From NCBI RefSeq assembly GCF_046105845.1, contig NZ_CP151004.1: a DNA stretch of 64,000 bases; one strand, given 5' to 3'. This document shows positions 3,058 through 37,666 of the stretch, one piece after another (within the stretch, counting starts at the first letter, position 1; every line of letters starts with the position of its first letter). Source of the stretch: Escherichia coli (GTDB lineage: Bacteria > Pseudomonadota > Gammaproteobacteria > Enterobacterales > Enterobacteriaceae). The position numbers and the translations under genes were made by a program. The notes beneath the pieces are model-generated. The model had not been told where the DNA came from and searched no databases. It saw only the letters and a list, made by a program, of their open reading frames with translations.

Positions 3058-4598
3058 TATGCAGCCCTCACAATATAGTTAAAAGCGACATTTCGTGGGC
3101 GTGTTTCATTCGCACCTGCAGGTTTAGTCGTTGCCGCAACAACACCACCCTCTGTAATAGCCGGGTTAGGAATTGGGTAATTATCGAAGTCAATGGCCGG
3201 AGACAGGGGCGTGATTTGTTTTAAAATCGTGGTGCCTGTAAAACTTTCCAGAGTCTGGTCGTTAGTTCGTGAAGTCCAGATTCCCCAATAGTGGTTATGA
3301 CTGACAATCGCACCGTCCTGAAGCGTTAATAATCCCCTTCCGTTATCCACTCCACGTCCGTCATCCCAGCCACGAATAAACTCACCGCGTAAATCAGGCA
3401 ATTTATTTGTCGGGTAAGCCTTTGCCAGTTCCGGGTATTCTTCAGCAGAAAAAGCCGCACCATTGCATTTCAGCCAGCCTGTCGGCGGAGTGGCGGAAGG
3501 CCACGGAACAGGCACACCAACAGGTAATGCAGAGCCTTCTCCCAAACCAAGGTATGCGAGAAGACCAGCTACATCCTTTCCACTCAAATTGGTAAGCGTA
3601 TTGTCCAGCGGTTGTTTACCTGCCAGCGCATTAAGCATTGTCGTGGCAAAGTTCGGATCATTCCCCAGTGCCGCCGCCAGTTCGTTCAGTGTATCCAATG
3701 CCGCGGGTGCAGAACCCACCATTGCTGCAATCGCTGATTTTACAAAAGCTGTAGTGGCAATCTGTGTATTGTTGACCGACTGTGCCGCAGTAGGTGCTGT
3801 TGGCGTTCCGGTGAGTGCCGGACTCGACAGTGGCGCTTTCAGTGCCAGCGCATTGTTAATGGTGGTACTGAATTTCGGATCATTGTTAATGGCTACGGCT
3901 ATTTCTTTCAGCGTGTCCAGCGTGGCTGGCGCACCATTAATAAGAGCCGTCAGTGCCGCCTGAACAAATGCGGTGGTCGCAAGCTGCGTGGTATTATTCC
4001 CCGCCGCTGGCGTTGGCGCTTTGGGGGTTCCGGTAAACGTTGGACTTTCTTTGGGTGCATACTGTGAATGCGGGTCCGGCGCGGCAAGATGTTTTGCCAT
4101 CAGGTCATCCACGTACACCTTCAGCTCCAGTGCCTTGTCATCCACATACTTGCGGGTTGCCAGCACTACTGCAGGGTCGATTTTCAGGGTGATATTGTCC
4201 GTGCTGCTGGTAATCAGCACCATGCGCACGGTCTGGGTGCGCCCGCTGCCTTCAGCCAGTTGCGGCTTATAGCTTTCCGGGCAGTTGCCCACGGCAATCA
4301 ATGCACCTGATTCATCAAACAGGCCCACTTCACGTATCCACCAACCGCCCTCGTTTTCAGGGATCACCTGTTCAGCAATAATCTGGCTGCTGTTCTGCGG
4401 GTCGATATAGAGCATATTCAGCGCAGCCCGGCGTTTCTCATTTACCAGTGCCGTCTGCTTTGCGTCCGGCGTTGGCAATGTTCCGCCGCCATCGCCGACC
4501 GCCATATGGGTAATTTTTAAAGGCACACCGAGCGCGGCGGCGCTGGCAAGTTTCGCCGCGCCAATATCCGTCAGCAGGGTATAAAATTTTGTGCTCAT
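3057..4598 (-). CDS. H: Tail fibre protein (P2 gpH-like) with a Mu S / T4 gp37-like C-terminus
   Basis: 513-aa ORF; N-terminus MSTKFYTLLTDIGAAKLA... typical of P2 H; internal repeats (TTQLATTAFVQAAL / NTQIATTAFVKSAI); C-terminus ...RPRNVAFNYIVRAA. Confidence 0.9.
   Translation of the reverse strand: MSTKFYTLLTDIGAAKLASAAALGVPLKITHMAVGDGGGTLPTPDAKQTALVNEKRRAALNMLYIDPQNSSQIIAEQVIPENEGGWWIREVGLFDESGALIAVGNCPESYKPQLAEGSGRTQTVRMVLITSSTDNITLKIDPAVVLATRKYVDDKALELKVYVDDLMAKHLAAPDPHSQYAPKESPTFTGTPKAPTPAAGNNTTQLATTAFVQAALTALINGAPATLDTLKEIAVAINNDPKFSTTINNALALKAPLSSPALTGTPTAPTAAQSVNNTQIATTAFVKSAIAAMVGSAPAALDTLNELAAALGNDPNFATTMLNALAGKQPLDNTLTNLSGKDVAGLLAYLGLGEGSALPVGVPVPWPSATPPTGWLKCNGAAFSAEEYPELAKAYPTNKLPDLRGEFIRGWDDGRGVDNGRGLLTLQDGAIVSHNHYWGIWTSRTNDQTLESFTGTTILKQITPLSPAIDFDNYPIPNPAITEGGVVAATTKPAGANETRPRNVAFNYIVRAA
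3537..3562. repeat. gix/hix-like inversion crossover site (right), inside gene H
   Basis: TTCTCCCAAACC-AA-GGTATGCGAGAA; inverted relative to the 1687-1712 site. Confidence 0.65.
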
Positions 4599-15862: not shown

Positions 15863-17287
15863 TTACTTACGTGTTTCAACTATATTCAGCCCCTTATAAA
15901 GGCTTTGATGGATATATACAGAACCAGTATTTGGCAACATTAAATCAGCATCTTCACATCGGAATCTAGCCGTACCGGAATTGCCCAACCGGACACCAAT
16001 CACAGAAGCATTAAATAGAGTTTTCATCAATTCACGAGAAGTATAGCGCTTACAAAGGTCAGGCGCTTTCTCTTCAATCTTACTGATGAATTCTTCTGTA
16101 GAATTATATCTATGCTGCGTCTGACGTAAAGATTCCAATAGCTCACCAAAATGAGGGTAGAGCCTTTTGTATTCTTGTTTTAAGTCCTCAACTTTCCAAG
16201 CGCTGTACCGTTCTTCAGCTATTCTAATTATATCCTTTTTTATTTCAGAAGCATTAGCATCACAGCGTTTTTGGCATTCTTGCAAAAACTGAATAACTTC
16301 TCTTGGGCGCAAAAATGTGCGCTTCACCAAATAGTTAAACGGTGAAATACTCCCTCTCATTTCACCTTCCTCAAAAATATCATCTATAGTTATATTTTCC
16401 GGCAATCTGGCGTTCACCATATCTTTCAACAACTCTGGTGTCCAGATTATTTCTTCTTCAATTGCTCGGTGTTTATCTTTATCATCAAATTCCAGCCCTT
16501 GATAAATATCAGAGCGTAAAAATGTTACAATATGAATACCTTTGGCTCTAGTATCAGAATAACTATCATTAATATCTTTTGTTGCCTTCAACAAGCCAAT
16601 CAAAAGGCTTTTGGCATCATCCGATCCATCCCAAGAATCATCTAATCGATCAGTGGCAATTAGCACCCCAATATCTGTACAAATTTCTTTAAGCTCGTCA
16701 AGGATGATTTTTATTATTTGAGGTGTCAATGGTGCTTGCGAAGCATCCTTATTAAACCCCACAGCATATCCGAAAGCCTCAAAATTGAATGAACTTAATC
16801 CCGAGAGTAACTTCCTTGCAGTTCCCAAAGTAGTTGGCGATATACCACCATAGTTATCAGAAACAAATTTTTTAATTCTAGCAAGGGCCTCCCGAGGTCT
16901 TTTCTCTGAAAATTGCCTACCTGACCTAATAATTTCTGCCGCAGCCTCAACAGCTATTGCAAATTTCCAAGCATTACAATGTGCCTGTTCGGGTAACAAC
17001 CCTTGCTCTTGATATTGTTTTAATGCTCCCCAAGCATACTGGTCTGGGGTCATGACATTTACGATAACGTCCTGCCCATATTTTGCTCTTACCAACCTTG
17101 GGAGTTGGGTAAAGATGGATGATTTCCCAGCCCCCTTTCTTCCAAGAAAATGGGCACTATAGAAACTCAGAGCTTGCTCAACTTGAGGAGTATTGATGAA
17201 ATAATCAGCCAACCTTCTATCAGCTTCAGCATCGACAGTACCAAAGTTGAGTCCCTTAACTGTAAGGCCTAACGCATCTAACCGCAC
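15863..17287 (-). CDS. P-loop NTPase, divergent KAP-like (candidate anti-phage or accessory gene)
   Basis: 474-aa ORF with GTG start and AAGGA RBS; Walker A FLGRKGAGKSSIF; Walker B-like VLIATDRLDDSW; visibly AT-rich compared with flanking late genes; lies between the cos-like site and Q. Confidence 0.75.
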   Translation of the reverse strand: MRLDALGLTVKGLNFGTVDAEADRRLADYFINTPQVEQALSFYSAHFLGRKGAGKSSIFTQLPRLVRAKYGQDVIVNVMTPDQYAWGALKQYQEQGLLPEQAHCNAWKFAIAVEAAAEIIRSGRQFSEKRPREALARIKKFVSDNYGGISPTTLGTARKLLSGLSSFNFEAFGYAVGFNKDASQAPLTPQIIKIILDELKEICTDIGVLIATDRLDDSWDGSDDAKSLLIGLLKATKDINDSYSDTRAKGIHIVTFLRSDIYQGLEFDDKDKHRAIEEEIIWTPELLKDMVNARLPENITIDDIFEEGEMRGSISPFNYLVKRTFLRPREVIQFLQECQKRCDANASEIKKDIIRIAEERYSAWKVEDLKQEYKRLYPHFGELLESLRQTQHRYNSTEEFISKIEEKAPDLCKRYTSRELMKTLFNASVIGVRLGNSGTARFRCEDADLMLPNTGSVYIHQSLYKGLNIVETRK

Positions 17288-17374
17288 GATAATTCCTTAA
17301 TTGGTAAACTAAATTTGAACTTGATGCCAACAAAGATAATATCAATTTAATTAAAAAGAAAGCTGTTGCGCGCG

Positions 17375-17393
17375 CTCGTATCCCCGCCACGCC
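17375..17393 (-). other. cos-like cohesive-end site (P2/186 type)
   Basis: Minus-strand reading GGCGTGGCGGGGATACGAG; first 13 nt match my recollection of the 186 cos (GGCGTGGCGGGGAAAGCAT); flanked by repeated TTTCATGCA motifs. Confidence 0.5.
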
Positions 17394-17772
17394 TGCCCGC
17401 TTTATGCAGTGGTTTTCATGCACATGCATGACATGAGCAAAAGCCCGCCAGTTCTGGCGGATCTGAGCAAAGACGATCCTCAATCGATCATGCGATTTCA
17501 TGCAGCATAGTCATGCACTGTCAAAGAAGTAAAAATCCGTATCTGAATGGCCACTTGAAAAACGGATCATACGGGTTTACAAAGATGAATGTTCGCTGTG
17601 AACGGGAAGCGGAAGTTAACTTTCAGATAACATAATCCATATGCACGAGAACCTCTAAAATAGAATGGGACACCTAAGCGGGGTACTTACAACGATTCTT
17701 TCCATATTCACAGTTAACACTCTGTTTGGCGTATTTTTATTCAAATAGCAAACACCAATAAAAGGAGTTTCC

Positions 17773-18108
17773 ATGAACAATATTCCCCCTATACCACAGT
17801 TAGGAATTTATGTCTCAAAAATCGATCCCACCCTACGTATCACTGTAACCGATGTTGATATTGTTGATGGTGAGGATGATTCTCCTGATGATGAATTGTT
17901 TTATTTAGTCCACTGGATCGAGGGGGAAGATGAAAGTGATATGACAGCAATGGGATTTGAGCTAGACCCAGTAGAGTGGCAGGCTTTCGTTGAATCTGAG
18001 CAATTAGTGTTTGAGCGTGATCCGTACATGGATTCAATCCCCGAAAATTCAAACTTGGCAAAGATTCGGGATTTTCTCATGAAGACTAAACAGAATGATC
18101 ATTCGTAA
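17773..18108 (+). CDS. Small highly acidic hypothetical protein
   Basis: 111-aa ORF with strong AAGGAG RBS; Asp/Glu-rich (VDIVDGEDDSPDDELF, IEGEDESDM). Confidence 0.6.
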   Translation: MNNIPPIPQLGIYVSKIDPTLRITVTDVDIVDGEDDSPDDELFYLVHWIEGEDESDMTAMGFELDPVEWQAFVESEQLVFERDPYMDSIPENSNLAKIRDFLMKTKQNDHS

Positions 18109-18885: not shown

Positions 18886-21300
18886 TTAATATAGGTTCCG
18901 CCACTTATCATCTTCCTTCAGACGCTGGTTCCGATAGAAGATACGCAGGCCTGCTCCTGACGGAATACTGCCGCCGCGAAGGAGCAAATCGACTTCTTTC
19001 TCGCTGCCATCAAATCCCCTGGACTTCAGTTCATAGACGAGCTGCTGTCGCTGATGGTCTGTAATTCGCTGTTTGTAGTCTTTACGCCGTTTCGGTTTCA
19101 CCTGGCGTAACCTTGCAGCCAGTTCCCGGCGCTCTTTTTTGCTCATACTGTGCAGGTAATCGTGCAACTCCTTGTCATTCATACGGGTAATATCCGTTCT
19201 GGAGTCCGCATCAGCTGATTTGTCTTTCCCTTGTTGGTTCAAATTTTCAGCAAGGGGACAGTTATTGCCACGAGTCCAAGGGGCGCAAGCGCCCTGGTCG
19301 GCTGCCGCCTCCTGAACGTCAACGACCTTACGAACCATTTTCCATTTCATTGCATGAGTGCAGATCTTGCCCTGTACAATGGGTGACCAGATGCCATAAA
19401 TACGAATACCGTGATCGCCATAAGCGGTCGGCTCTTCGTTAATTTCATAAGCTGTTCTGATAAGGTGATATTTGCGGGGAACCAGTACGCCGCCCTGCTT
19501 CATGATGTAGGTGGCAAAACAGCCAGCATCAGCGGCAGCCAGGATGGCATCAAGGCGCGGGTCATCCAGTACCGGCGCACCTGCTTTTTTGTCACCCTGT
19601 TGCCTTGCCGCCTGACCAGCCAGCAAGCGAAGTTCACGGTACGCCTGACGCCCCGGAATACCAAAGAAGCGGAACTGCTGAACACGATGCAGAGACGCCC
19701 AGGCATTAACGTATTCGGCGTTATCACGCAGGGATTTACCCGTTTCCTTGCTGATCTCGCCAGCCAGACCACGTCCGTCAATGTTCTTACTGATGTATTT
19801 CGCGATGTAGCTTGTCGGCGTTCCTTTGCGCGGGTTTATCAGCTCAGACTTAAAGCGTGGACCCGTGTTATTGCCCAGTTCCTCGCGGTCTTCACGGATG
19901 GCAAACTTACGCAACAATGCAGTAATGGCGCGGCGGTCTTTTTTGCGCATGAAACACATGAGATGCCAGTGCACAGTACCGTCATGGTGCGGCTCAGCCA
20001 CCCGCACGCCATACCAGCGCAACCCGGCTTTGTGCATAGCCTTACGAAATGCAGCAAACATGCCGACCAGATAATCGCTGCTTTGTCTTACCGTCGCATT
20101 TGTCCAGGTTGGGTTTGGTCTGCCGTTATTGAGCGTAGAATGGAAACGTGACGGACAGGTAATGGTGTAGAAAACGGCGCAGTCACCACGCATTTCCGCG
20201 ATAAGCTCCAGACCTTTAACACAGGCCATCATCTCATTGCGGCGGTGCGCCGGGTTGCTGCTGCTGGCGTTTACCACGTCTTCCATATCCAGCGTGTCGC
20301 CGTCTTCGTTCACCAGTTCATGAGAACGGAAAAACTCCAGCGACTTGCGGCGCTGCTCACGTTTATGCGTCACTGCTTCATAGCTGACATAGGGAGATGC
20401 TTTTTTGCTGACCAGGCAGACAGCACGCAACTGCTCTTCCCGCCATTCGCAACGTATCTTCCACAATTTTCGATACCACCAGTCGGCGCAAAGCATACGT
20501 GCCAGCGAACCCGGTATGAGTTCATAGGGCACGGGTTTGCGGCGGTTTCTTTTCCGACGGAGTTTCTCAAACGCAGGCGGGATAACATCCAGACGCAGGG
20601 TTTCCGCTGCCACCTTTTCCCATGTCTTGCGGATTTCTTCTGGCTTAACGTCATCGGTGGCATACAAATCACCACAAGCGGCCTCAAGACACATGCTCAT
20701 ATGCGCTGCTACCAAGGTGGACAGGCGTTTTACCTGATCCTGACTCATTTCAGGCAGGATCAGCAGGCCCTCAAGCCCTTGATGGCTTGCCATAAAACGG
20801 AAAGAAGCGGATAGCTGACTGTCGCGTACATACTCCAGTCGCTCCAGACATGACTTAATCGTCTCACGCAAATAGCGGGAATAAGCCTTTGGCCTGCCCA
20901 GGCTGCTGAAGTATTCGATACGTTGCATCAGCGGCTTGCTGATGTGGGTGGGCTGGGCGCTGACGTCCGCCAGAATGACCATGTCCGGGTTAAAACGCTG
21001 CTGCTCATGCGCCAGCTTTGCCCGACTAATGAGATTATCCTGCTCCATTTCGCGCTGGACAGGATCACGGGATTCATTAAAGAAATAACGCTCCCAGACC
21101 TGCTCACTCAGTGCATCGCGGCGCAGCTGTTCCTGCTCGTTATCGGCAGCGTACAGAGTGATCATGTTTGAAAGTGCAGACTCCGGCGCAACTTCCGCCG
21201 GGTCCAGATAAGGGTTAATGGCCTTTTTCGGGCCGTTCCATGAAAATGCTGCAGCGGCCTCGTTAAAGCCGCTAGAGTTGCTCATATCATCATGACTCAT
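18886..21300 (-). CDS. A: Replication initiation endonuclease (P2 gpA-like, rolling circle)
   Basis: 804-aa ORF, characteristic size and position. Confidence 0.85.
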
Positions 21301-22154
21301 ACACGCACCTCGTACACAGCAGAACTATCCACGCCACGCGAAGGATCAAATCCCACCCAGCAGCGCGCCCCGGAAACAGCAATGATTTCTGTTGCAGATT
21401 TACTCTCGCCAGCCGACACGCCGATGCTGCGTTTTGCCTTGATGTAGTGGTGAGTGAAATTGCGATACAGCGAACGAATCAGGGATGTGTCACTGTTAGA
21501 AACAATGACCGGATGACCTTCAGATGATCGATGTTCAAGAACGGATGCCAGGTGATACTGGTCATCCTCAGTGAAGCCATCAGTGTGATAGCCGGAAAAC
21601 GTACCGTCATAAGGCGGATCGCAATACACCACATCCCCCGCCTTCAACATCGCCAGCGTTTCATCAAAGCTGGCGCAGATAAACGTTGCTCGCTGGGCTT
21701 TTTCTGCAAATTTGCGAATTTCTTTTTCAGGGAAATACGGATTTTTATAATTCCCGTAGGGAATGTTGAAATGCCCGCTCTTGTTATAGCGACATAACCC
21801 ACGGTAACCATGACGATTGAGATACAGGAAATATACCGCTTTCATGAAATCAGTAATTTCAGTGGAGTAATTAAACTCCTGCCTTATGTTGTAATAAGCC
21901 ACCTCCCTGTTTGCTTCCTCAAATAAAGCTCTGGCACGAGATATAAACGCCTCGCAATCAGCAGCAACCTTTTTATAGAGGTTGATTAAATCAGGATTAA
22001 TATCCGCAACAAGATAGCTGGGGTAATCCGTCTCTATCATCACAGCACAAGAACCCGCGAAAGGTTCAACCAGTCGCGGGCCAGCAGGAAGGTATTTTTT
22101 CAGTTCTGGCATAATGGCGGTTTTATTACCCGCCCATTTCAGGATGGTGCTCAT
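21297..22154 (-). CDS. DNA adenine methyltransferase (Dam family)
   Basis: From internal start [11 protein letters not shown]...; motifs LVEPFAGS and DPPY; stop overlaps the A start. Confidence 0.85.
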
Positions 22155-22378
22155 ACAGCACCTCCGTTGTAATGTTTGCCTTTCAGCTCTGCGATTTCCT
22201 GACAGGTAATGCAAAGCTGCACACCCGGAATGGCGCGACGTCGTGCTGGCGGAATTGGTGCTTCACACTCAATGCAAAGCACGCGGGATACGCCCGGCGT
22301 TTTGGCGCGGGCAGCACGGATATGACGCTGGCGTTCTTCTTCAACGCGCTGCTGTACGAGATCCATTGCATCAGCCAT
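22151..22378 (-). CDS. DksA/TraR-type C4 zinc-finger protein
   Basis: 75 aa, CIECEAPIPPARRRAIPGVQLCITCQ. Confidence 0.7.
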   Translation of the reverse strand: MADAMDLVQQRVEEERQRHIRAARAKTPGVSRVLCIECEAPIPPARRRAIPGVQLCITCQEIAELKGKHYNGGAV

Positions 22379-22617
22379 CAGTGGATCTCCTGCGCTTCGT
22401 TCTGGATTGCTTCAGCAGTCACACGCAGCAGTTCTGCCGCTTCGACGTGGTTTAGCTGGCGGGATGTGATATGAGACGCCAGGCTATCAAGGCGAGCTGC
22501 CATTGCTTCAGCCCTTGCCCGGCGTTCTTCCAGACGAGCCTCTGTCAGTAAAATATTAAGCCCTGCATCATCCGGTCCGGTTTTAGTCATGAGGGTTTCA
22601 ATATTACGCATAATCAA
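22378..22617 (-). CDS. Hypothetical phage protein
   Basis: 79-aa ORF in the early operon, tightly packed with neighbours. Confidence 0.5.
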   Translation of the reverse strand: MIMRNIETLMTKTGPDDAGLNILLTEARLEERRARAEAMAARLDSLASHITSRQLNHVEAAELLRVTAEAIQNEAQEIH

Positions 22618-22678
22618 TTCTCCTGAATTTAGATAAAGGGATGCCTGGCGGGTTTACGCCATGAATTTCATTAGTTGG

Positions 22679-24080: not shown

Positions 24081-24650
24081 ATGAATTTGGAGAAAGGCGG
24101 ACGAGGCGCTATAGAGCGCATGGTAGAAGCATATGGCTTCAAGACTCGACAGGCGTTGTGCGATCACTTAGGAATCTCTAAAAGTACTCTCGCCACACGC
24201 TATATGCGTGACTCATTCCCTGCTGAATGGGTAATCCAGTGCGCACTTGAAACGGGCGCCTCGCTTAACTGGCTCACGACCGGACATGGTTCAAAGCAAA
24301 CTTCAGGTAATACAAATACTATGGAAGTCGTTAAATATGTATTATCTGATGGAACCTTGCAGGAAGATGGTTTTTATATTTTCGATAAAGAATTTCTACC
24401 ATCTACGCTCAAAAATCCGTTTGTAATCACCGATAACAATTCCGTTTTTATTTGCGATAAAGAGTTTAACGATATTCGTGACGGCAAATGGGTAATAAGT
24501 ATTGATGCCGAAGTAACAATCCGCGATATCACTCGTTTACCTGGTGGAAGAATCTTAGTTGAAGGTGGAAATAGGGCTTTCGAATGTAAAAAAGAAGAAA
24601 TCGAAATTATTGGAAAAATTATAAGCATAACAGTTAAGTACTTTGAGTAA
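24081..24650 (+). CDS. cI: Immunity repressor CI (186 type)
   Basis: ATG at 24081 after a GGAG RBS; ...IERMVEAYGFKTRQALCDHLGISKSTLATRYMRD..CALETGASLNWLTTG...ITRLPGG...FECK... Confidence 0.85.
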   Translation: MNLEKGGRGAIERMVEAYGFKTRQALCDHLGISKSTLATRYMRDSFPAEWVIQCALETGASLNWLTTGHGSKQTSGNTNTMEVVKYVLSDGTLQEDGFYIFDKEFLPSTLKNPFVITDNNSVFICDKEFNDIRDGKWVISIDAEVTIRDITRLPGGRILVEGGNRAFECKKEEIEIIGKIISITVKYFE

Positions 24651-24700
24651 TATAGGAATGTTTTTATGCTTGGTAAAGCATTTGTTGTGGTGTAAAAAAT

Positions 24701-25624
24701 ATGTCAACTCAAAAATTAAAATTTAGCCATATCAAAAACGATCTGAAAGCAATAGTTATGCAGAATCGTGGAGGGCAAAAAGTTATTGAGCGTATACTCC
24801 TAGCCTATGGCTTCAAGTCACGACAGGCATTATGTAATCATCTAGGTATTTCCCAAAGTACTATGGCCAACAGATATGCACGTAATACCTTTCCTGCAGA
24901 TTGGGTTGTTATATGTTCCATAGAAACAGGAGCATCAATTGAATGGTTAGTTCTTGGTTCAGATACTGCTCCTTCATCAGAGCAATATTCTGAAAAACAT
25001 GCCGTTAATGGCCTTTGCAATGAAGTATACATTCCCACTATAAAGTTCGATAATGAAAAACTCATGAATTTTAACCGAGGGGGTAAGGCAACAATAGAAC
25101 GAATTGTCGAGGCTTACGGTTACAAAACGCGCCAAGCATTAGCTGATCACCTAGGTATTTCAAAAAGCACATTAGCCACACGATACATGCGTGACATTTT
25201 TCCTGCAGACTGGGTTTTGCAGTGTGCAATAGAAACGGGCCATTCTATTGAATGGATTTCATTTGGTACAGGAGAAATGAAAAACACAAAAAATAAAGAT
25301 ACTTTAACATTAGTGAAAAAAGTATTAATCAATGGCAAGTTAATAAATGATGGCTCATATTTATTTGACCCATGCTTTCTACCTTCCAATTTAAAAAATG
25401 CATTCGTAGTATCTACCGAAGACTCTGAATTAATATGTGAAATGGGTTTTAAAGATGTACATGATGGTAAGTGGCTAGTAAATATTGATGGAGAGAATTC
25501 ATTTAGAATGATAACTCGACTACCTAAAGGACGAGTTTATATTTCATCCCAAAATCACTCTTTTGAATGTTCGCTTACAGACATTGAGTTTATTGCAAAA
25601 GTTATTATAAGTTGTTTACATTAA
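24701..25624 (+). CDS. CI paralogue with tandem duplicated N-terminal HTH domains plus a CI-like C-terminal domain
   Basis: 307 aa; residues ~22-90 and ~125-190 each resemble the CI N-domain (the second carries ISKSTLATRYMRD, identical to CI); C-terminal FECSLTDIEF region parallels the CI C-domain. Confidence 0.8.
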   Translation: MSTQKLKFSHIKNDLKAIVMQNRGGQKVIERILLAYGFKSRQALCNHLGISQSTMANRYARNTFPADWVVICSIETGASIEWLVLGSDTAPSSEQYSEKHAVNGLCNEVYIPTIKFDNEKLMNFNRGGKATIERIVEAYGYKTRQALADHLGISKSTLATRYMRDIFPADWVLQCAIETGHSIEWISFGTGEMKNTKNKDTLTLVKKVLINGKLINDGSYLFDPCFLPSNLKNAFVVSTEDSELICEMGFKDVHDGKWLVNIDGENSFRMITRLPKGRVYISSQNHSFECSLTDIEFIAKVIISCLH

Positions 25625-25649: not shown

Positions 25650-27167
25650 GTGAAATGTGGTGATTGTAATTGGAACTGGGATGAAGAAACTACCTTTATA
25701 TTAGACGACGAAGAGGAAATTCTTTCCAAAGACAAACTTAATCGGAGACACTATGCAGAATATCTATATTTTTATCTTAAGGAAAAGGGGCAAAAGAACA
25801 ACACGGTAATCAACCTTAATGCAGAATGGGGAGCTGGTAAAAGTTTTTTCATAAAGAGATTTTATAACTCAATAAAAGATGCACACCCATGCGTTTACAT
25901 TGATGCCTGGAAGCAAGACTTTTCTGATGATGCATTTTTAACCCTTTTTTCTTCTTTGTCACAACAATTGCAAACATATGCAGGAAAACTTGATGCTCGA
26001 TTGATACAAAGCGGCCATGCTATCGGACGCTTTACAAAAGGTGTTCTACCTGAAATCATATCTGGCCTAATCAAGACTTATGCAGGAGTAGATAACGTAG
26101 GTGATATAGCCAAAGAAGCCTCATTAATAATGCTGAAGGAACACCAGGAAAAACTGAAGAGCATTAAGGTATTAAAAAAAGAACTAACGTTATGGTCTAG
26201 GTTGGCATATGAAAATAGTTTTTCATGTCCTATATTTATCTTTATAGATGAATTAGACAGATGCAGGCCAGATTATGCAATTTCTCTTTTAGAGATTGTT
26301 AAACATATATTCGATATTAAAAATTTTGTCTTTATTATTGCTACTGACACAGATCAATTACAACATTCAATCAAGAATGTTTACGGTAATGATTTTTCCG
26401 CAAATGACTATTTAGGCCGTTTTTTTCATAGAAGATTTACTTTAAAACAACCTGAACTTAAAGATTTAATTAATGGTGTTATTGGTGATTATATTGGTAC
26501 CGATTTTGAAAATATCACATCAAAAACATACCCACTAACAGCAACATTAGAAGACTTTTCAATAAATATTTCCAACGTATTTGAAGCATTTGGGTTAAAT
26601 CTAAGAGACTCAATCCGAAATACTGAAAGGTTAATAGACATTCTTAAATCTGATTTAGTCAAAAAGAAAGTAGATTATATTTTTATAATTTCGCTAATGA
26701 TTATATATGATAAGGATCGTCAAATTATAGATGGACTAATTGGTCGAAGAAATGCAGCACAACGTTTCACTGATTCGATAAAGCAAAGCTCCAATTTAAA
26801 AGGTGTTTCTCAAGCCATCCTTGAATTAAATCTTGATACAAATCAGCAAAGAATAGGTGTCAATTATATCTATAGAACGGCGAGCAGTAGATTATTCATC
26901 TCACAGATCGAGCCCAAAATAAATTTAACATTAATAAATTACTTAGATGTTGCATTGTATTTTATTAATAATATAAACATGCTTAAATCAAGTATAAAAA
27001 ACAATGGGCAAAATTCACTAATGATTATATCTCAACAAGGCCCTATTGATGGTGATACAGCTATAAAGTATTTGCAAGGAGCCCTTATAGAGAATGGTCT
27101 GAATACATCTTTTTATGCCTTACATAATTACATTGAATTAATTGAACTGGCCACATCATTTGATTAA
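25650..27167 (+). CDS. KAP-family P-loop NTPase
   Basis: 505 aa, GTG start with GGAGA RBS; NLNAEWGAGKSFF (Walker A), IDAWKQDFSDDAFLTLF, IFIFIDELDRCRPDYAISLLEIVKHIF (Walker B), all hallmark KAP motifs; AT-rich. Confidence 0.85.
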   Translation: MKCGDCNWNWDEETTFILDDEEEILSKDKLNRRHYAEYLYFYLKEKGQKNNTVINLNAEWGAGKSFFIKRFYNSIKDAHPCVYIDAWKQDFSDDAFLTLFSSLSQQLQTYAGKLDARLIQSGHAIGRFTKGVLPEIISGLIKTYAGVDNVGDIAKEASLIMLKEHQEKLKSIKVLKKELTLWSRLAYENSFSCPIFIFIDELDRCRPDYAISLLEIVKHIFDIKNFVFIIATDTDQLQHSIKNVYGNDFSANDYLGRFFHRRFTLKQPELKDLINGVIGDYIGTDFENITSKTYPLTATLEDFSINISNVFEAFGLNLRDSIRNTERLIDILKSDLVKKKVDYIFIISLMIIYDKDRQIIDGLIGRRNAAQRFTDSIKQSSNLKGVSQAILELNLDTNQQRIGVNYIYRTASSRLFISQIEPKINLTLINYLDVALYFINNINMLKSSIKNNGQNSLMIISQQGPIDGDTAIKYLQGALIENGLNTSFYALHNYIELIELATSFD

Positions 27168-28306: not shown

Positions 28307-28442
28307 TAACCACCACTGACCACCAACCCAACTTATTGTTTTTACTCTAAGTTATTGTTTTCATTAACCCGTTTACATAAATGGGTAATTTGTATTGTTG
28401 AATAGCATCTGATGAGAAATTGATGCTAATATTATAAACATA
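28307..28442. other. Junction between the P2/186-like prophage (int side) and the lambdoid element; expected position of the P2-type att core
   Basis: AT-rich 136-bp interval between the int stop and the first lambdoid gene. Confidence 0.4.
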
Positions 28443-28616
28443 CTAGATTAAATCAATCTTGATATCATAGCTTTCAAGACCAGTCATTTTTTCCCGTGCA
28501 GTAAACTGGATACTGGTAACTTCTTTCCCGGTCTTTTTCTTAAGCTCAATGATTTTTTTTGTTATATATTCAGAAATATCTGCTTCTGTTTTTGTTTTTA
28601 ACTCTTCAATGTTCAT
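28443..28616 (-). CDS. GnsA/GnsB-family protein
   Basis: MNIEELKTKTEADISEYITKKIIELKKKTGKEVTSIQFTAREKMTGLESYDIKIDLI resembles E. coli GnsB. Confidence 0.7.
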   Translation of the reverse strand: MNIEELKTKTEADISEYITKKIIELKKKTGKEVTSIQFTAREKMTGLESYDIKIDLI

Positions 28617-28788
28617 CATTTCCTCTTTTAGTCTGTTATGACTTTCCTGGTACACAGTAGTGTCAATTATATGGAGCAAACGTATAAAAGATAAGATGAA
28701 ACATCGCAATAATCAACATACGACGGTCTAAATTTCACACAAACAGATAAAGATGATTATCATTTATTATCAATGCATTAGAATCAAA

Positions 28789-29019
28789 TCAATTCAAGAG
28801 TCTCATTGCTGCTTCCAGAATTTCTTCTGAAGTTACATGTCGATCCGCTGCTACATAAATGACTTTATGATCTCCGGTCAGAGATGGAAACCCTGCAGCC
28901 ATTACAGTGAGGTGTGTTGTTTCGCCATTTGGATATTCACGCATGATGGTGTTAACTCCGGTCATCACTGGCACTACCATTGCTGGTTCAGAGTTAAAAA
29001 AAACTATTATTTTTTTCAT
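28789..29019 (-). CDS. Hypothetical small protein
   Basis: ORF MKKIIVFFNSEPAMVVPVMTGVNT...; start uncertain. Confidence 0.4.
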   Translation of the reverse strand: MKKIIVFFNSEPAMVVPVMTGVNTIMREYPNGETTHLTVMAAGFPSLTGDHKVIYVAADRHVTSEEILEAAMRLLN

Positions 29020-29290
29020 AATGTTACCGTAATATGTGAGTATCCATCGACTAGACACTAAGCAAAAAAGCTCCCGAAGGAGCCTTCATTTTCACTTTCT
29101 TAAATCTAACGACAGACGGCTAACATTTAAGTATTGTGAAATATTATCAAATGTAATCATCATTGATTTACAAAAGATACATTTTGCCCCGAAAGGATTC
29201 CTGTCAGAAACATCAAAAGATGATGTTCTATACTGAGAACCATGGCAACACGGGCATCTAAAGTGAATATGGTTTGTAATATTTTCTACC

Positions 29291-29506
29291 TCAAAGTGCC
29301 ACTACATGAACAGCCGCGGGGCCTTTAGGTCCGTTCTCAATACCAAATTCGACTTCCTGATTCTCAGTTAACGTTTTGAAATCGTTGCTCTGAATAACTG
29401 AGAAATGGACAAACACATCTTTGCTACCATCTTTCGGCGTGATGAAACCAAAACCTTTTTCAGGGTTAAACCATTTCACTAAACCAGTCATTTTGTTAGA
29501 CATCAT
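29291..29506 (-). CDS. Cold-shock protein (CspA family)
   Basis: [23 protein letters not shown]...VFVHFS, RNP motifs. Confidence 0.85.
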
Positions 29507-29866
29507 TATTACCTTTTGAAGAAGTTAGCCCTTGGGCAGAATGGTCCGAAAAAAAATATCAGAGAGAAAAACCAACAAGGAGATCTCAAGAGGTACAAAT
29601 AATAAAATTATAACAATGACTGCTTCAGATAATTTTGTAACAAACCAGAACACCATTAACGCATGATTAACCAACCATAGCAAGGATTACTTTTGTAAAG
29701 AAAAACACACGAATGAAACAATAGCTTTATTTATTAATAAAACGTGTCATTCTGTCTAATGACCTTTTATCTTACCCTTAAGATTTCAAGGATTTTGACT
29801 CATGGAAGAGTCCTTTTTATTTAAATTTCACATTCAGCGCTAAAAATAATCCGATTTAATATTAAT

Positions 29867-30894
<1,028 letters not shown>

Positions 30895-31215
30895 GGATAT
30901 TTATCAGGATTTATCGGCTTCAAATCCCCGGATATGTTAAATCTTACCTCACCAGTGATGGGCACTGGCGGGAGGAGGATGTCAATCTGATAAACACAGA
31001 GGTGACTATGGATTACACAAATCTACCAAAACAAACTTTTGCTGATTTAATCGCACTCAGGCAAGCAGTCGTAGCTCTAATCAACTTGTTGCCGGAGAAG
31101 GAAAAGGAATTAGTTAAAGCGCTTCTTAACAGAACTGCCGCCGATTTTTCATCATATCCACTGACAGATGACCTTGCGGACCTTCCTGAATTAATTGCAG
31201 CGTCCGCCATTAAGC

Positions 31216-31767
31216 TTACTGAAGAGATTTACCCTCCTCAAAAATCTTCACAAAATTCCTGCGAGTAACTTCAATGCAATAATCGTAAAACGCCGCAAAC
31301 TGCTCATCGCGGCGTTTTTTTTCATCTTCAGAAGGGATCAGCACCGACAATTTTTTATTCAGATCAGCGACGCTGCCCTCCAGTTTTTCAATGGGCGATT
31401 CAATATCATCTTTTTCTGACCGCAATGCCGTCGGTGGCGTCTTCAGAGAACCAGTAATTCTTCCCGGTAGCTTTCCTTTGTAGGTTATCCACACATTCTG
31501 CGCCTCTAAAATTATGGGGCGCTTTTCCGGCGACTGCTCATCCCCTACACATAACCCGGCAGCAACATCCAGGAATACCTGTCTGATTCTCATTCTGGCT
31601 GCTGCCTCATAAAACTCCAGCGCGGCACCTTCAACACGGTCCAGCGAGATGTCCAGGTCAAAAATTTCACCGTCAAAGCGTTTTTTGTCCCGTAAGGCTA
31701 CAGTTACCGCCACTTTATTCTCAAAATTGCGGACTCCTTTCACAACCAGTTCATAGTCTTGTGTCAT
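31216..31767 (-). CDS. YdfR-like protein (DUF1327-type), between holin and lysozyme
   Basis: Position matches Qin essQ-ydfR-rrrQ; family assignment from memory only. Confidence 0.5.
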   Translation of the reverse strand: MTQDYELVVKGVRNFENKVAVTVALRDKKRFDGEIFDLDISLDRVEGAALEFYEAAARMRIRQVFLDVAAGLCVGDEQSPEKRPIILEAQNVWITYKGKLPGRITGSLKTPPTALRSEKDDIESPIEKLEGSVADLNKKLSVLIPSEDEKKRRDEQFAAFYDYCIEVTRRNFVKIFEEGKSLQ

Positions 31768-31771
31768 TGGA

Positions 31772-31987
31772 TTACTCTCTTCTCGCAACCTTACGCCTGT
31801 CTTCTTTAATCTTGAAATAAAGGTTTGTCAGATACGTCAGCAGGCCAAAAACCAGACTACCCAGCACACCGATTGCAGCCCACTGTGACGGAGTTACTTT
31901 ATCGAGTAACTGCAATGCCCAGAAACCAGCATTACCAGCCGATGTGCCATAGGCGATACCTGTTGTTAACTTATCCATTGATTTCAT
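31772..31987 (-). CDS. Holin (EssD/EssQ-like)
   Basis: [66 protein letters not shown]. Confidence 0.85.
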
Positions 31988-32205
31988 ATCCTCACCCCGA
32001 TGTACACAGATGGTGCAATATGTTTGAAAAGATCGGAGTCTATGGGTTAGTTTTTATAGCAAACGTTGTTCTCAACGGCGCTAAAAAACAGACACATTAA
32101 AAATGTGGGTAATTATTTTAAAAGAAAATCATATATTAAATAATAATACGAGATATGTTTTCATATTTAGTGTACTGTATACGGCCATTTATACAGGAAA
32201 AGCCT

Positions 32206-32376
32206 ATGTCAGAACGTAAAGACTCAAAATCACGCCGTAATTATCTCGTTAAATGTTCCTGCCCAAACTGCACCCAAGAGTCAGAACACAGTTTTTCAAG
32301 AGTACAAAAAGGTGCCCTTTTGATCTGCCCTCATTGCAACAAAGTATTCCAGACAAATCTTAAAGCTGTAGCTTGA
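32206..32376 (+). CDS. Small zinc-ribbon protein (hypothetical)
   Basis: ATG at 32206 after an AGGAAAAG RBS; CSCPNCTQ...CPHCNK, two CxxC pairs. Confidence 0.5.
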   Translation: MSERKDSKSRRNYLVKCSCPNCTQESEHSFSRVQKGALLICPHCNKVFQTNLKAVA

Positions 32377-32739
32377 TTGATTTTATTCGTAACAAGTATT
32401 TTTTATATTTTAATAACATATTTAAAGCAGATAATAAAAAACCCGCCTGAGCGGGTTTAATATTGTGGTACTTTTTGTGGGAGTCATCCACTTACGCACT
32501 TTGTTTTGCTATGCCAGCAGTTAGCTTCTGCTGTAAAACTATTCATGCAGCAAACCTGCACTTCACCACAATGGTTAGCATACTTTTCCTGATTAAGTTA
32601 TTGCCAAATATGCTGGCCATTGTTTCATGTATTGGACCTCCTTACTATTTATTAAAGAGATCCAATATTCACCACTCTGTCTGTATCTCCACTCAGGCAT
32701 CAGCCTTCTTCGTTATCGTATACAGACAAACTATGAATT

Positions 32740-32955
32740 TTAATCAGTAATTATGACATTTGCTGCTGCAGGACCTTTAGCACCACTCTCTACAGAGAAG
32801 GTAACCTTTTGACCTTCAAATAAGGTTCGAAAATTATCATTCTGAATCGCAGAAAAATGCACAAACACATCTTTACTACCATCAACAGGAGAAATAAAGC
32901 CAAAACCTTTATCAGCGTTAAACCATTTTACTAAACCAGTCATTTTATTTGACAT
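32740..32955 (-). CDS. Cold-shock protein (CspA/B/G family)
   Basis: [23 protein letters not shown]...VFVHFSAI. Confidence 0.85.
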
Positions 32956-33255
32956 TCTACATTCCTTAACTTGAGCCTTTCGGCATAAATGGCTTGTATA
33001 ACAGAAACGACTTCGTACTTAATTGGAGAGACTCAAAGAAGGAATAAGTGAATAACACCTGAAATGAGAACTGCTTTAGTAAACTACTTCGTATATCGTC
33101 TGTTCTTCAAACCGACGCAATCATTAACGCATAGTTGAACATATGAAGCAATGTTTATTTTAGACATCCAGCCATCTTCAACCCCATCAAAAAACTATAG
33201 CTTTCTTCAGGAACGTGTGTATAGTGCGCCCAGTTATCAGTATTAAGGAATTTTT

Positions 33256-33468
33256 TTGTCCCGTAAAATGACAGGAATTGTCAAAACCTTTGACGGCAAA
33301 AGCGGCAAGGGTCTTATCACCCCATCCGATGGTCGTATCGATGTCCAGCTTCATGTTTCAGCGCTCAATCTCCGCGATGCAGAAGAAATTACCACCGGAT
33401 TACGCGTGGAATTTTGCCGGATAAATGGTCTGCGTGGCCCTTCAGCTGCCAATGTTTACCTTTCATGA
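33256..33468 (+). CDS. Cold-shock-like protein (CspF/CspH type)
   Basis: [37 protein letters not shown]...[16 protein letters not shown]. Confidence 0.8.
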
Positions 33469-33883
33469 GCTATATTAAAGCTTTAATTTCAGGCCCCATC
33501 GAATCAAACATGGAGAGTTTTCATGAATAACCCCGTCTGTCTTGATGACTGGTTGATTGGCTTTAAAAGCTTATGCTGTACTTTGACCGTAATAGCTCTG
33601 CTAATAATGTAATATGCAGACTCATTGTATCTAGGGACATAGTACTGGAAGAAAACATTTTAAACATCAGGCAAAGTCACCCGATAAATAATAAGTAAAC
33701 AAACATGAATCCCGGAATGAGATTCAACATCTCTATTACCCTATTTAAAGCACAAAAACCCGCTCATCAGCGGGTTTTCTACTTTTTCTTAACGTCGGGT
33801 ATATAAAGCCCATCGTTGAAAAAATTTTATCCATATTTTTTGAAAAATGCAAGCATTACGTCGCCATCTTCGGCGAAAATCAT

Positions 33884-34636
33884 TTATCTCGTCACTTTTC
33901 TTAATTGCACCTCAGCATATGCTTCTTCCTGCCAGCACTTTGTAACCAGTTTATCAATGACATCTGCATATCCTTTGTACCACTGATAATCAGTCAGGTC
34001 TGGTACCAGCTTCTGGACATGACACCGCGCCAGTGTCGTTGGTAAACGACTAAACCGGTTTCCATTGCAACGCCCACAAATCTTATAAACAGGCGCGCCA
34101 TGAAGCCGGGTCCTTTTTTCATCCAGGACAATACCTTTACCCTTACACCCTCTGCACGCTGTGCTGACTTCTCCCTTACCATGACAATGCTGACATAGTT
34201 CCTTCACCCACTCTTCCTTGATAACAGACTCCCCGCTTCTGGAGTATTTCACCACTTCGCGCAATACATTATGAAATCCAGTACCAGCACAAGGCTCACA
34301 GCGAGCCTTACTTGCCGCAGACCTGGAATAATCAGCAAAGGCAAAACTCACAAGGTAAGGGATGATCTGTAACCGGATTTCTTCACTCAATTTGTTCAAT
34401 GTCGGGTTATCCAGTGCCATCGCGTAATTGAGCAGACCTTCAATCGCAAACTGAGGATCCTGAACGCCAGCTTTTGCCAGGAATAAGGCAAACCCAAGCG
34501 GTGCTTTCGACTGCACCATCCCCTGCGCAGCCATCACATCCGTAATCGTTAAACCACCTGAGCCTGTCGCCGGTGCGGCATCACTCAATTTTGGAGATTT
34601 TGGGGAGTAATATTTTGGTAAGGCTTCAAGGTTCAT
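33884..34636 (-). CDS. Late-gene antiterminator Q (QuuD/QuuQ type)
   Basis: From MNLEALPKYY...; Cys-rich zinc-binding region CEPCAGTGF...CQHCHGKGE...CRGCKGKG...CGRCNGN. Confidence 0.8.
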   Translation of the reverse strand: MNLEALPKYYSPKSPKLSDAAPATGSGGLTITDVMAAQGMVQSKAPLGFALFLAKAGVQDPQFAIEGLLNYAMALDNPTLNKLSEEIRLQIIPYLVSFAFADYSRSAASKARCEPCAGTGFHNVLREVVKYSRSGESVIKEEWVKELCQHCHGKGEVSTACRGCKGKGIVLDEKRTRLHGAPVYKICGRCNGNRFSRLPTTLARCHVQKLVPDLTDYQWYKGYADVIDKLVTKCWQEEAYAEVQLRKVTR

Positions 34637-34649
34637 GCTCGTTCTCCAC

Positions 34650-35645
34650 TTACGCCAGTACGCCAATTGCCAGCGCACGATCGATAAAACGAAATATCAG
34701 CTCCAGTTGGGAGCCATACTTCTCTTCAAATGTCACGGTATCCGCATGCAGCTCGTCGTGATGCTTTCTGCACAAAGGCAACACAAAGAGATCATGCGCT
34801 TTTGTACCCATTCCACCCTGACCGTGGCCTATCAGGTGGTGGGGATCATCAGCTGGCTTTCCACAACATGCGCACGGCTGCGTCTTAACCCAGCGCGTGT
34901 ACTTTTCATTAACCCAGCGGCGACGTTTGGGGCGTAACATAAAAGACTCCGGCGACTCCGGATCCACTTTCAGCGCCAGCACCTTTTTCGCTTTATCCTG
35001 GATGATGCTGGTGGCAGGAACCGAAGGCACAAGGTCACTTTCCCGGGTGACAGATGGCACAACAGGCTTCGGTAATCTCAGTGCCTTACGGGCTGCACTT
35101 TCCGGTAAGGCATCCGCCAAATCATTACGAACCAGCCACCAGCACAGTTCCGGCATTGTCACAACGTGACTGTCATCAAAACCGAGATCCCGACGCACGA
35201 CAGACAACACCCAGCGGGCACAGTTATCCGTTGCCATTGATTCCAGCCGTTCCGTGAACTGGTCACGCAGCTGGTTATCGCAGTGCCAGCACAGACGAAT
35301 TGCTCCCGGAGCGTGCCGCATTGTGGTCATGTTCTCGCTGTGCCAGTCGGAATGAGGCCACTGACAGCCCTTTTCACGAAGTAACCAGCTTTCAAGACAT
35401 TCCACGCCACCAGCACGACGGATCACTGCCTCATTGCGGAACACGGCCCGAACGGCAGGATCATCCGCCAGCGGTTGTGATGCCGCCGGAACGGCACCAC
35501 TGGCGAAAGATGAATAACGTTCCGGCTCAGGCTCCAGCAGGACACGCCCCTGCATAAACAGGGGCATCAGCTCTGAACCTGGCCTGAACAATACAATCCC
35601 CATACGCGGGGCAATTTCAGGGGTCAGTAGTGCTCTCACGGTCAC
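34650..35645 (-). CDS. YdfU-like protein (DUF968)
   Basis: 331 aa; C-terminal ...CACCGKPADDPHHLIGHGQGGMGTKAHDLFVLPLCRKHHDELH; Qin-like position upstream of Q. Confidence 0.75.
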   Translation of the reverse strand: MTVRALLTPEIAPRMGIVLFRPGSELMPLFMQGRVLLEPEPERYSSFASGAVPAASQPLADDPAVRAVFRNEAVIRRAGGVECLESWLLREKGCQWPHSDWHSENMTTMRHAPGAIRLCWHCDNQLRDQFTERLESMATDNCARWVLSVVRRDLGFDDSHVVTMPELCWWLVRNDLADALPESAARKALRLPKPVVPSVTRESDLVPSVPATSIIQDKAKKVLALKVDPESPESFMLRPKRRRWVNEKYTRWVKTQPCACCGKPADDPHHLIGHGQGGMGTKAHDLFVLPLCRKHHDELHADTVTFEEKYGSQLELIFRFIDRALAIGVLA

Positions 35646-35646
35646 C

Positions 35647-36444
35647 TCAATGAACGGTATCGAGCAGCTTTAACAGCTCAGGGAATCGGGATTCGAAGAA
35701 ATGCGGCTGCGTCTCGCGCGGATTTGCAGGACTGGTGATGTTCTTGCCGAACATGCAGCCTTTCGCCGTCAGCGACCAGAATTTTTTGATGTTGTTAATC
35801 GCGGTACGGCTGTATCGTTCGCGTTGTTCAACGATCCCCAGCTTCACCATCTGGTGATATGCCTGATTAGCCGTCAGGCGGATACCATACTGCCTCAGCA
35901 GTGCACTCAGAGACAGCGTGGGGCGACTTGAGCCATCGTGTGCATCAGCAGGAGCATCAATGGCATAGCGCGGTGCCAGATTCGGTAAGCCAACAGCCTC
36001 CTGGAGTTTCTGGCAGGCACCAAGCACTGAAGAGTTAGACAGGTTTAATTCCCGGCGCATAAAGTCCAGCAGAATCACACCAGCCTGCATCTTGTCAGCA
36101 GCCTGTCCGGATAATTTTTCCGGTGCGCTGGTTACCATGTCGAAAGTACGGATCACCTTCAGATGGAATGACGGGCTGATCCACATTGCATAGGCATACA
36201 CCAGTTCTTTGCAGACATACGTCCCCTGGTTATTTCCGCCACGAATAACGTTAACTGGCTCTATATTGACCGAGTTGCAAATCTGCAACTCGCTTATTAA
36301 ACGCTCAGTTTGCTCATTGCGGAGCCAGAATGCGGGCTTATGCTTATCCAGAGAACCAGCAGCCCTGTGCAGATCGTTCAGGCTGTAACGCCCATAAGCA
36401 TCACGACGAACTTCAATACCATCAATAACCATCAGATTATTCAT
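35647..36444 (-). CDS. KilA-N domain protein (antirepressor-like)
   Basis: N-terminal VIDGIEVRRDAYGRYSLNDLHRAAG...KPAFWLRNEQTERLISEL. Confidence 0.75.
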   Translation of the reverse strand: MNNLMVIDGIEVRRDAYGRYSLNDLHRAAGSLDKHKPAFWLRNEQTERLISELQICNSVNIEPVNVIRGGNNQGTYVCKELVYAYAMWISPSFHLKVIRTFDMVTSAPEKLSGQAADKMQAGVILLDFMRRELNLSNSSVLGACQKLQEAVGLPNLAPRYAIDAPADAHDGSSRPTLSLSALLRQYGIRLTANQAYHQMVKLGIVEQRERYSRTAINNIKKFWSLTAKGCMFGKNITSPANPRETQPHFFESRFPELLKLLDTVH

Positions 36445-36463
36445 ACTTCGTTTCTCCTCTTAA

Positions 36464-36853
36464 TCAGGCGGCTGCACCCGCCGTTTTCTCGTACTTACTG
36501 ATAGTGATCTCGACCTTCCCTTCCGGGATAACCGGTCCCCACTCCACCAGCATTCTTTTCACCTGACTGTCGTCTTCCCACACACCCGCGTGGGTCAGGG
36601 CGTCAAACAGCGCCTTGTTATAGTTGTCCAGATCGCGGATCCGGTTATCCGGAGGAAACAACACGATCTCCACTGAAGCAGGTGCCGACGTTGGTTTTGG
36701 CAGACGACGTAACTGCTCAAATATTGCTGCACACGCCGCGCTCTGGAATTTGCGCCCCGCCGCGCTTATCAGGCTCTTACCAGCAAACGCCCCTTTGTTG
36801 GGGTGTCGCCAGTACGTGTTCACGCTGGGCGGGAAAGGCAGGATCAGCTTCAT
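36464..36853 (-). CDS. rusA: Holliday junction resolvase RusA
   Basis: MKLILPFPPSVNTYWRH...DLDNYNKALFDALTHAGVWEDDSQV. Confidence 0.85.
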   Translation of the reverse strand: MKLILPFPPSVNTYWRHPNKGAFAGKSLISAAGRKFQSAACAAIFEQLRRLPKPTSAPASVEIVLFPPDNRIRDLDNYNKALFDALTHAGVWEDDSQVKRMLVEWGPVIPEGKVEITISKYEKTAGAAA

Positions 36854-37664: not shown

Positions 37665-37666
37665 GA

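Follow-up and report, generated by a model that had tools for sequence, protein, structure and literature searches.

What does a prophage gain from a second Dam methylase in Escherichia coli, a host with a Dam of its own, and what does it mean that this second gene ends on the first codon of the phage replication gene? The question is raised by the 64,000-nt stretch of E. coli DNA analyzed here (the window; contig NZ_CP151004.1 of assembly GCF_046105845.1), where a gene that we call dam occupies positions 21297-22154 on the minus strand and encodes a 285-residue orphan Dam-family (alpha-class, D12) N6-adenine DNA methyltransferase. The region is the early region of a 186/Fels-2-type Peduoviridae (P2-family) prophage in the E. 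coli chromosome, and dam lies directly before the replication gene A. The answer that we favor is that the enzyme is a GATC methylase that would be made with A during lytic growth and would top up the methylation of phage DNA.

A diverged Dam homolog ahead of gene A

The dam open reading frame (ORF) is intact in both the ORF listing and the raw sequence, running on the minus strand from an ATG at 22154-22152 to a TGA at 21299-21297. A longer frame is possible from a TTG at 22214. The ATG at 22154 is the likelier start, because it is preceded by a GGAGGTG Shine-Dalgarno sequence (22159-22165, minus strand) 4 nt before the ATG, because Dam profiles align from residue 1 of the product, and because it is the start of the RefSeq coding sequence in E. 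coli O127:H6 E2348/69.

The family assignment is clear. The product matches PF02086 over profile positions 1-253 of 253 with 260.3 bits (cutoff 22; E 2.8e-77) and TIGR00571, the Dam family, over positions 1-266 of 267 with 325 bits, nearly three-fold the cutoff of 114.85. The crystal structures of E. coli Dam (2g1p and 4gol) match residues 4-260 at E 2e-73, PHROG 56 (DNA methyltransferase) matches at E 1.6e-123, and the top PADLOC model is the 'orphan methyltransferase' oMTase PDLC03729 (369 bits). The neighbors of dam are a DksA/TraR zinc-finger gene and gene A, with no restriction gene adjacent, as befits an orphan enzyme. A sequence-only reading of this locus had proposed a Dam homolog with a DPPY motif, to be checked by profile search, whose stop codon overlaps the start of A. 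Its coordinates are exactly those of the dam ORF, now placed on the minus strand; the Dam family is clearly matched (PF02086 260 bits, TIGR00571 325 bits, together with 2g1p and 4gol), DPPY is found at residues 179-182, and direct reading of the minus strand at 21300-21297 gives ATGA, in which the TGA of dam and the ATG of A overlap.

Across 255 columns of alignment, the protein shares 47.5% identity with E. coli Dam. Against NF008152, the equivalog model of host Dam, it scores 288.6 bits, under the cutoff of 441, and judged by this score it is an old, diverged phage paralog, not a recent copy of host dam. We searched the 64-kb window for a second Dam copy and found none.

A probable early lytic gene beyond a tR1-like sequence

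The genes around dam encode CI, an apl/cox-like protein, CII, Fil, DUF5347, DUF2732, the zinc finger, Dam, A and DinI, followed by an integrase. This is the order of a 186/Fels-2-type early operon, that is, cI / apl/cox, cII, fil, DUF5347, tR1, DUF2732, DksA/TraR, (cargo), A, DinI/Tum. The assignment draws on Pfam matches for cII, DUF5347, DUF2732, the zinc finger, GPA, DinI and CI, on annotated relatives and on homology to tR1. For the last of these, the window was aligned with the annotated tR1 region of 186, with phage RE-2010 and with a Gegavirus (alignment A3). Just upstream of the DUF2732-zinc finger-dam-A block, at 22632-22661 on the minus strand, this alignment reveals a sequence homologous to 186 tR1 (TGGCGTAAACCCGCC.GGCAT.C.TTT), a 30-nt stretch that is conserved in RE-2010 and the Gegavirus. 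A simple terminator scan did not flag the stretch at 22632-22661. According to the 186 record, this operon is driven by the CI-repressed promoter pR. By synteny with 186, dam would be transcribed only from a CI-repressed early lytic promoter, after read-through of the tR1-like terminator, and Dam would be made together with A at the time of phage replication, not in the quiescent lysogen.

The same evidence bears on a different role, in which Dam made by the resident prophage would act as a lysogenic-conversion factor, raising or retiming host GATC methylation and shortening the hemimethylated period, with effects on SeqA, mismatch repair or phase-variable genes. That 23% of the complete E. 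coli genomes carry dam might point to an advantage for the host, and the guanine-plus-cytosine (GC) content of dam, 46.9% against 52-56% in neighboring genes, is of a kind common for accessory cargo. However, dam lies inside the early lytic operon, chained by overlapping codons to the zinc-finger gene and A, and downstream of the conserved homolog of tR1 from 186, whose own operon is under CI-repressed pR. A consensus scan for promoters returned no sense-strand promoter-like site before dam; the only match that falls inside dam is antisense, and the total is below shuffle expectation. Moreover, the recognized conversion cargo of this prophage occupies other places, namely the interval from cI to int and the region downstream of A. 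We therefore consider a role in lysogenic conversion improbable. An altered host methylation in the lysogen, one of two consequences that the sequence-only reading had proposed, is the less likely of the two, because dam is in a CI-repressed early lytic operon past a tR1-like terminator and because E. coli has its own Dam.

Residues that predict GATC specificity

The motifs of the protein follow one another in the order of the alpha class: FxG, recognition hairpin, then DPPY. The S-adenosylmethionine (AdoMet)-binding motif I (FxG; PFAGS) is encoded at 22050-22061 on the minus strand, where the codons for F32-A33-G34-S35 align with F35-G37 of E. coli Dam (EcoDam). The DNA-recognition hairpin, residues 116-137, is encoded at 21744-21809 (minus strand), and its residues Y117, R118, L120, R122, P132 and Y136 map onto EcoDam Y119, N120, L122, R124, P134 and Y138. 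Catalytic motif IV, D179-P180-P181-Y182, is read directly from 21609-21620 (minus strand). Alignment A1 sets the prophage Dam beside one T4-type Dam, one P1-type Dmt and three further Dams of the P2 family; F32, G34 and the DPPY motif are invariant throughout.

How EcoDam reads GATC is known. Discrimination depends chiefly on R124, which touches the guanine in the fourth base pair; K9 and Y138 read the first pair, L122 and P134 make contact with the third, N120 forms a hydrogen bond with a base, and Y119 intercalates (PMC4417163). Of these seven contact residues, six are identical in the prophage protein (K9=K6, Y119=Y117, L122=L120, R124=R122, P134=P132 and Y138=Y136), while N120 is replaced by R118. 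The equivalent of R124, R122, is invariant across the T4-type, P1-type and P2-family Dams, and the N120 position is Ser in T4-type Dam and Asn in P1-type Dmt. Because this position varies while the R124 equivalent does not, the replacement is no argument against GATC. Conservation of the contact residues strongly suggests that the prophage Dam methylates the GATC adenine at N6, with AdoMet as the methyl donor.

One might ask whether the protein is instead a Dam-fold methylase of different or relaxed specificity that would protect against a wider set of restriction enzymes. The replacement of N120 by Arg in this clade would fit such an enzyme, as would an identity to EcoDam of only 47.5% and a score under the NF008152 cutoff; adenine methylases of this type are found in prophages of other families, as in Serratia phage OS31 (PMC7556043). 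In contrast, the equivalents of R124, which enforces the fourth base pair, of the intercalating Tyr, of L122 and P134 and of K9 and Y138 are all kept, the TIGR00571 cutoff is passed almost three-fold, and N120 is not kept in T4-type Dam either, which has Ser there. The chance that specificity has shifted is, in our judgment, slight, and somewhat smaller than that of a role in lysogenic conversion.

A proposed role in methylating replicating phage DNA

What would a GATC methylase made during lytic growth accomplish? The least certain step of our proposal is that the extra Dam would top up GATC methylation of phage DNA whose replication outpaces the limiting host Dam. Lambda DNA is only partly Dam-methylated. 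With the additional enzyme, the packaged genomes of this phage would be fully methylated, and full methylation would make them resistant to methylation-sensitive GATC restriction of the MboI/DpnII type in the next host; it would also make replicating phage DNA a poor substrate for SeqA binding and MutH nicking. Such protection of phage DNA, the other consequence proposed in the sequence-only reading, is plausible.

There is ample substrate for Dam in the prophage, since its part of the window holds 92 GATC sites (3.2 per kb, against 3.4 per kb in the rest of the window) with no avoidance. For the whole window, the count is 213 sites against 228 ± 13.5 expected, which is neither avoidance nor enrichment of GATC. 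On these numbers we rejected GATC density as a sign of selection. As a separate observation, the D and P codons of the DPPY motif (GAT-CCG, 21620-21615) themselves hold a GATC site.

Several points tell against this proposal. Since the known hosts, E. coli, Klebsiella and Salmonella, are all already Dam+, it is not obvious what selective advantage a second Dam would bring. The protein also falls short of the cutoff set for the host-Dam model, and a base-contacting residue of EcoDam, N120, has become an arginine. The consensus scan has little sensitivity for an internal promoter from which lysogens could express dam. Our literature search found no experimental test of this Dam or of the Fels-2 Dam; the Fels-2 gene, STM2730, was mentioned only in a microarray list. 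Taking these points into account, we regard an orphan GATC Dam of a 186/Fels-2-type prophage, made with A in lytic growth and topping up phage DNA methylation, as the probable explanation of this locus.

A regulatory role, in which methylation of two GATC sites (24001 and 24035) in the 125-bp cI/apl switch region, beside promoter-like hexamers from the scan, would change the binding of repressor or RNA polymerase and bias the choice between lysis and lysogeny, is the least credible alternative: among nine phages, switch-region GATC sites do not track dam (one or two in dam+ relatives, one each in P2 and PsP3 without dam, none in 186 and HP1), two sites per 125 bp only slightly exceed the background of 3.2 per kb, and dam+ phages have mosaic immunity regions that are unrelated to each other. 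These sites were accordingly rejected as a Dam-linked regulatory feature on the lack of tracking.

Probable coupling of dam to gene A

Gene A (18886-21300, minus strand; PF05840 Phage_GPA, E 4.4e-128) encodes an 804-residue rolling-circle replication initiator, a nicking endonuclease, whose identity is 95-96% to its counterparts in the Klebsiella and Salmonella phages and 30-35% to those in P2 and 186. It is the last gene in a chain of four that are linked by overlapping stop and start codons. The first is the DUF2732 gene (22378-22617, minus strand; PF10809, E 1.5e-28), the equivalent of P2 orf80 and 186 orf79, whose stop shares one base with the ATG of the zinc-finger gene (TGATG). The zinc-finger gene (22151-22378, minus strand), the equivalent of P2 orf82, encodes a DksA/TraR-type C4 protein (PF01258, E 3e-11; TIGR02419, 65.8 bits, above the threshold of 59.7), and its TGA overlaps the ATG of dam as ATGA at 22154-22151. 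The third junction is the ATGA between dam and A (21297-21300, minus strand). An ATGA or GTGA junction before A is also present in Kapieceevirus, Felsduovirus and Gegavirus relatives and at orf84/A of 186.

The start of A is also built into the end of Dam. A GAGGTG Shine-Dalgarno sequence of A lies at 21306-21311 (minus strand), 5 nt upstream of A and inside the last dam codons, where it encodes Glu-Val. The C-terminal Glu-Val-Arg of P2-family Dams is conserved in alignment A1 and is encoded here by GAG-GTG-CGT (21300-21311, minus strand). Because these codons double as the Shine-Dalgarno sequence and spacer of gene A, the C-terminal tail of Dam is probably constrained by the ribosome-binding site of A.

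Is translation of A then tied to translation of dam? The RefSeq record of 186 states that 'translation to end of orf84 appears necessary for translation of A protein'. The same record places a terminator early in A, which should come into play if A goes untranslated. The ATGA overlap, together with this matching annotation of orf84/A in 186, makes the translational coupling proposed in the sequence-only reading a reasonable one, and by this analogy translation of A is likely coupled to dam. Ribosomes that end dam at the ATGA would reinitiate on the A start, or would open access to it, so that A synthesis would depend on the gene before it being translated, in line with what the 186 record says of orf84/A.

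Two findings weigh against coupling being obligatory. Gene A has a good Shine-Dalgarno sequence of its own, and a hairpin that could occlude its start is weak in the window. This 8-bp hairpin, which pairs the A AUG with the last codons of dam, is predicted across relatives in the alignment. Its energy in the window is -4.1 kcal/mol (z +0.9), no better than shuffles, and in RE-2010 it is -13.2 kcal/mol (z -2.8). The 141-nt RNA region at the A start likewise folds no better than shuffles (z -0.9). Since the hairpin is convincing only in RE-2010, we dropped RNA structure hiding the A start as proof of obligatory coupling. We also rejected a counterpart of the 186 tM1 terminator early in A; a stem-loop lies ~25-50 nt into A, with no proper T-run and unflagged by the terminator scan.

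A variable position upstream of gene A

The cargo position before A was surveyed at 80 IMG/VR loci whose A is 77-98% identical to that of the window; the ORF that ends at the A start could be identified in 79 of them, and the contigs are not independent of one another. Dam is by far the most frequent occupant (61 of the 79 contigs). A PAPS-reductase-domain protein like 186 orf84 (PF01507) takes its place in 6 contigs, a 276- or 285-residue PHROG 887 'queuine tRNA-ribosyltransferase' protein (E 2.7e-96) in 4 and a C5-cytosine methylase (PF00145) in 1. Five contigs have the zinc-finger gene directly at A, and DUF5405 and an ORF of unknown kind are found once each. Altogether, 72 of 79 contigs carry Dam, the C5-cytosine methylase, the PAPS-reductase-domain protein or the transglycosylase-like PHROG 887 protein at the A start. 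The non-Dam occupants among these (PHROG-887-like, PAPS-reductase-domain or C5-cytosine methylase) are on contigs L055-L057 and L089 (~2660-3492), L052-L054, L078 and L081 (~2446-3456), and L091 (2497-3495). The PHROG 887 protein matched PHROG 887 alone, with no sequence match in Pfam, NCBIfam or PDB. More than one modification gene can be present: in Salmonella phage SI7, Dam and Dcm genes precede A and a further methylase gene follows it. Phage SEN8 has an exonuclease and Dam before A.

These occupants raise the possibility, which we offer tentatively and would not yet bet on, that the position 5' of A in 186/Fels-2-type phages is a dedicated, exchangeable slot for DNA-modification enzymes, whose occupant is chained to A by overlapping codons and would be produced at the place and time of phage DNA synthesis. 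The PAPS-reductase-like and transglycosylase-like (perhaps DpdA-like) slot proteins may have the functions that their family names suggest, the names being the only guide. The slot pattern may already be familiar to P2 specialists. It could serve as a small model system for how temperate phages swap DNA-modification, or anti-restriction, cargo.

Distribution of the prophage dam

Over 951 nt, the dam region has 100% nucleotide identity to that of E. coli O127:H6 E2348/69, and the identical region recurs in several further strains of the species. RefSeq names the E2348/69 copy, an identical 858-nt coding sequence, 'DNA adenine methylase' (WP_000104133.1). In a survey of 5426 complete E. coli genomes, dam was present in 1240 (23%), almost always once and on the chromosome. 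Outside E. coli, it is found at 99.4% nucleotide identity in nine Klebsiella phage records, where the gene is annotated 'DNA adenine methylase' in the Kapieceevirus Klebsiella phages ST11-VIM1phi8.4 and ST512-KPC3phi13.2, and at 94.9% in Salmonella phage RE-2010 (Felsduovirus). A Gegavirus protein that is 70.8% identical to the prophage Dam occupies the same genomic place. The DksA-Dam-A order and the 4-nt overlap are common to the Kapieceevirus, Felsduovirus and Gegavirus relatives.

The prophage dam is thus an ordinary gene, already known, annotated and very widespread, and the novelty that the sequence-only reading had implied is not borne out, the gene being annotated already and present in 1240 of 5426 genomes. 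Phage-borne Dam methylases have been known for decades, and the standard pipeline already names this one correctly. Nearly one quarter of complete E. coli genomes nonetheless carry a second, diverged Dam, which would switch on at prophage induction. It is worth recalling when methylomes, dam-mutant phenotypes or DpnI/MboI-based assays are read in wild strains.

Other features of the window

Beyond the early operon, the prophage carries tandem CI-type repressor genes on the plus strand (24081-25624), both named 'phage repressor protein CI' by RefSeq in E2348/69. The first (24081-24650) encodes a normal 186-type CI. The second (24701-25624; GC 35%) encodes 307 residues with two Phage_CI_repr helix-turn-helix domains followed by one CI C-terminal domain, and may provide a second immunity specificity or act as a decoy. 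The integrase is separated from these repressor genes by a gene for a KAP-family P-loop nucleoside triphosphatase (25650-27167, plus strand; PF07693, E 7.5e-46; GC 32%), which matches the PADLOC candidate defense family PDC-S20 (E 9e-78) and is probably a defense cargo gene.

A second cargo region (15863-18108) lies downstream of A and DinI, at the tin/old position of P2. It holds a 474-residue ORF on the minus strand (GC 40%) and a 111-residue ORF on the plus strand, neither with a Pfam or PADLOC match at E<=0.01. Three GATC sites fall within 30 bp (17460-17489) of its non-coding sequence, between the ORFs at 15863-17287 and 17773-18108.

The P2-family prophage ends ~75 bp past its integrase and directly abuts a lambdoid prophage (DUF968, KilA-N, antiterminator Q; ~28381-45000), which matches other E. 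coli genomes from position 28381 onward. At this junction the prophage may have integrated at a site other than that in E2348/69, or one prophage may lie inside another. At its far end the window has dnaT, dnaC and opgB. These flanking genes, with the stretches of 100% identity to E. coli genomes, mark the host as E. coli; Klebsiella, to which the first phage matches had pointed, was rejected on these grounds. Within the helicase loader gene dnaC (56034-56771), seven GATC sites are packed into ~95 bp (56508-56601, plus strand), compared with ~3.3 per kb in the window, a cluster that could be related to SeqA or Dam.

Comparison with known systems

P2 itself lacks the enzyme, as the sequence-only reading had supposed. 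The annotation of NC_001895 lists no methylase, and a tblastn search of the whole 33,593-bp P2 genome with the prophage Dam gives nothing stronger than a 15-residue stretch (E 0.43). P2 has also been reported to encode no putative methylase (PMC3091744). In P2, orf83 (DUF5405) occupies the slot in which the window prophage has dam.

The prophage enzyme shares with E. coli Dam (2g1p, 4gol) the fold family, the order of FxG, recognition hairpin and DPPY, and six of seven GATC contacts. It differs in having Arg for N120 and Asn for R137, and in a C-terminal tail with ~14 additional residues, whose codons include the ribosome-binding site of gene A. The genomic setting differs as well, since the host gene lies in the damX-dam operon, whereas the prophage gene sits in a phage lytic operon.

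The closest parallel in arrangement is orf84/A of 186, where a non-essential cargo gene also lies directly 5' of A with an ATGA overlap and in the same DUF2732, zinc-finger and tR1 surroundings. In 186 the cargo encodes a PAPS-reductase-domain protein instead of a methylase, and the slot holds two extra genes, orf82 and orf83.

Other phages with a Dam of their own are more distant in sequence, the P1-type Dam being 36% and the T4-type Dam 24% identical to the prophage protein. P1 Dam serves a defined function in pac cleavage; no function of this kind is known for Dam in the cos-packaging P2-family phages. GATC activity has been proven for the Dams of P1, the T-even phages, VT-2 and the P2-family phage HP1 (PMC7556043), and the P2-family Vibrio phages K139 and PV94 carry N6-adenine methylase genes of their own (PMC8537503). 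The prophage Dam resembles P1 Dmt and the T2/T4, VT-2, HP1 and K139 methylases as an orphan adenine methylase in a phage of Dam+ hosts. The HP1 enzyme differs in size and place, with 173 residues and a gene downstream of rep, whereas the prophage gene is upstream of A. Nearest of all is the prophage of E2348/69, which has the same order of DksA/TraR, Dam and A with the same 4-nt overlaps. The dam gene itself shows no substantive difference there; the E2348/69 prophage adjoins rcdA/ybjJ, whereas that of the window abuts a lambdoid prophage.

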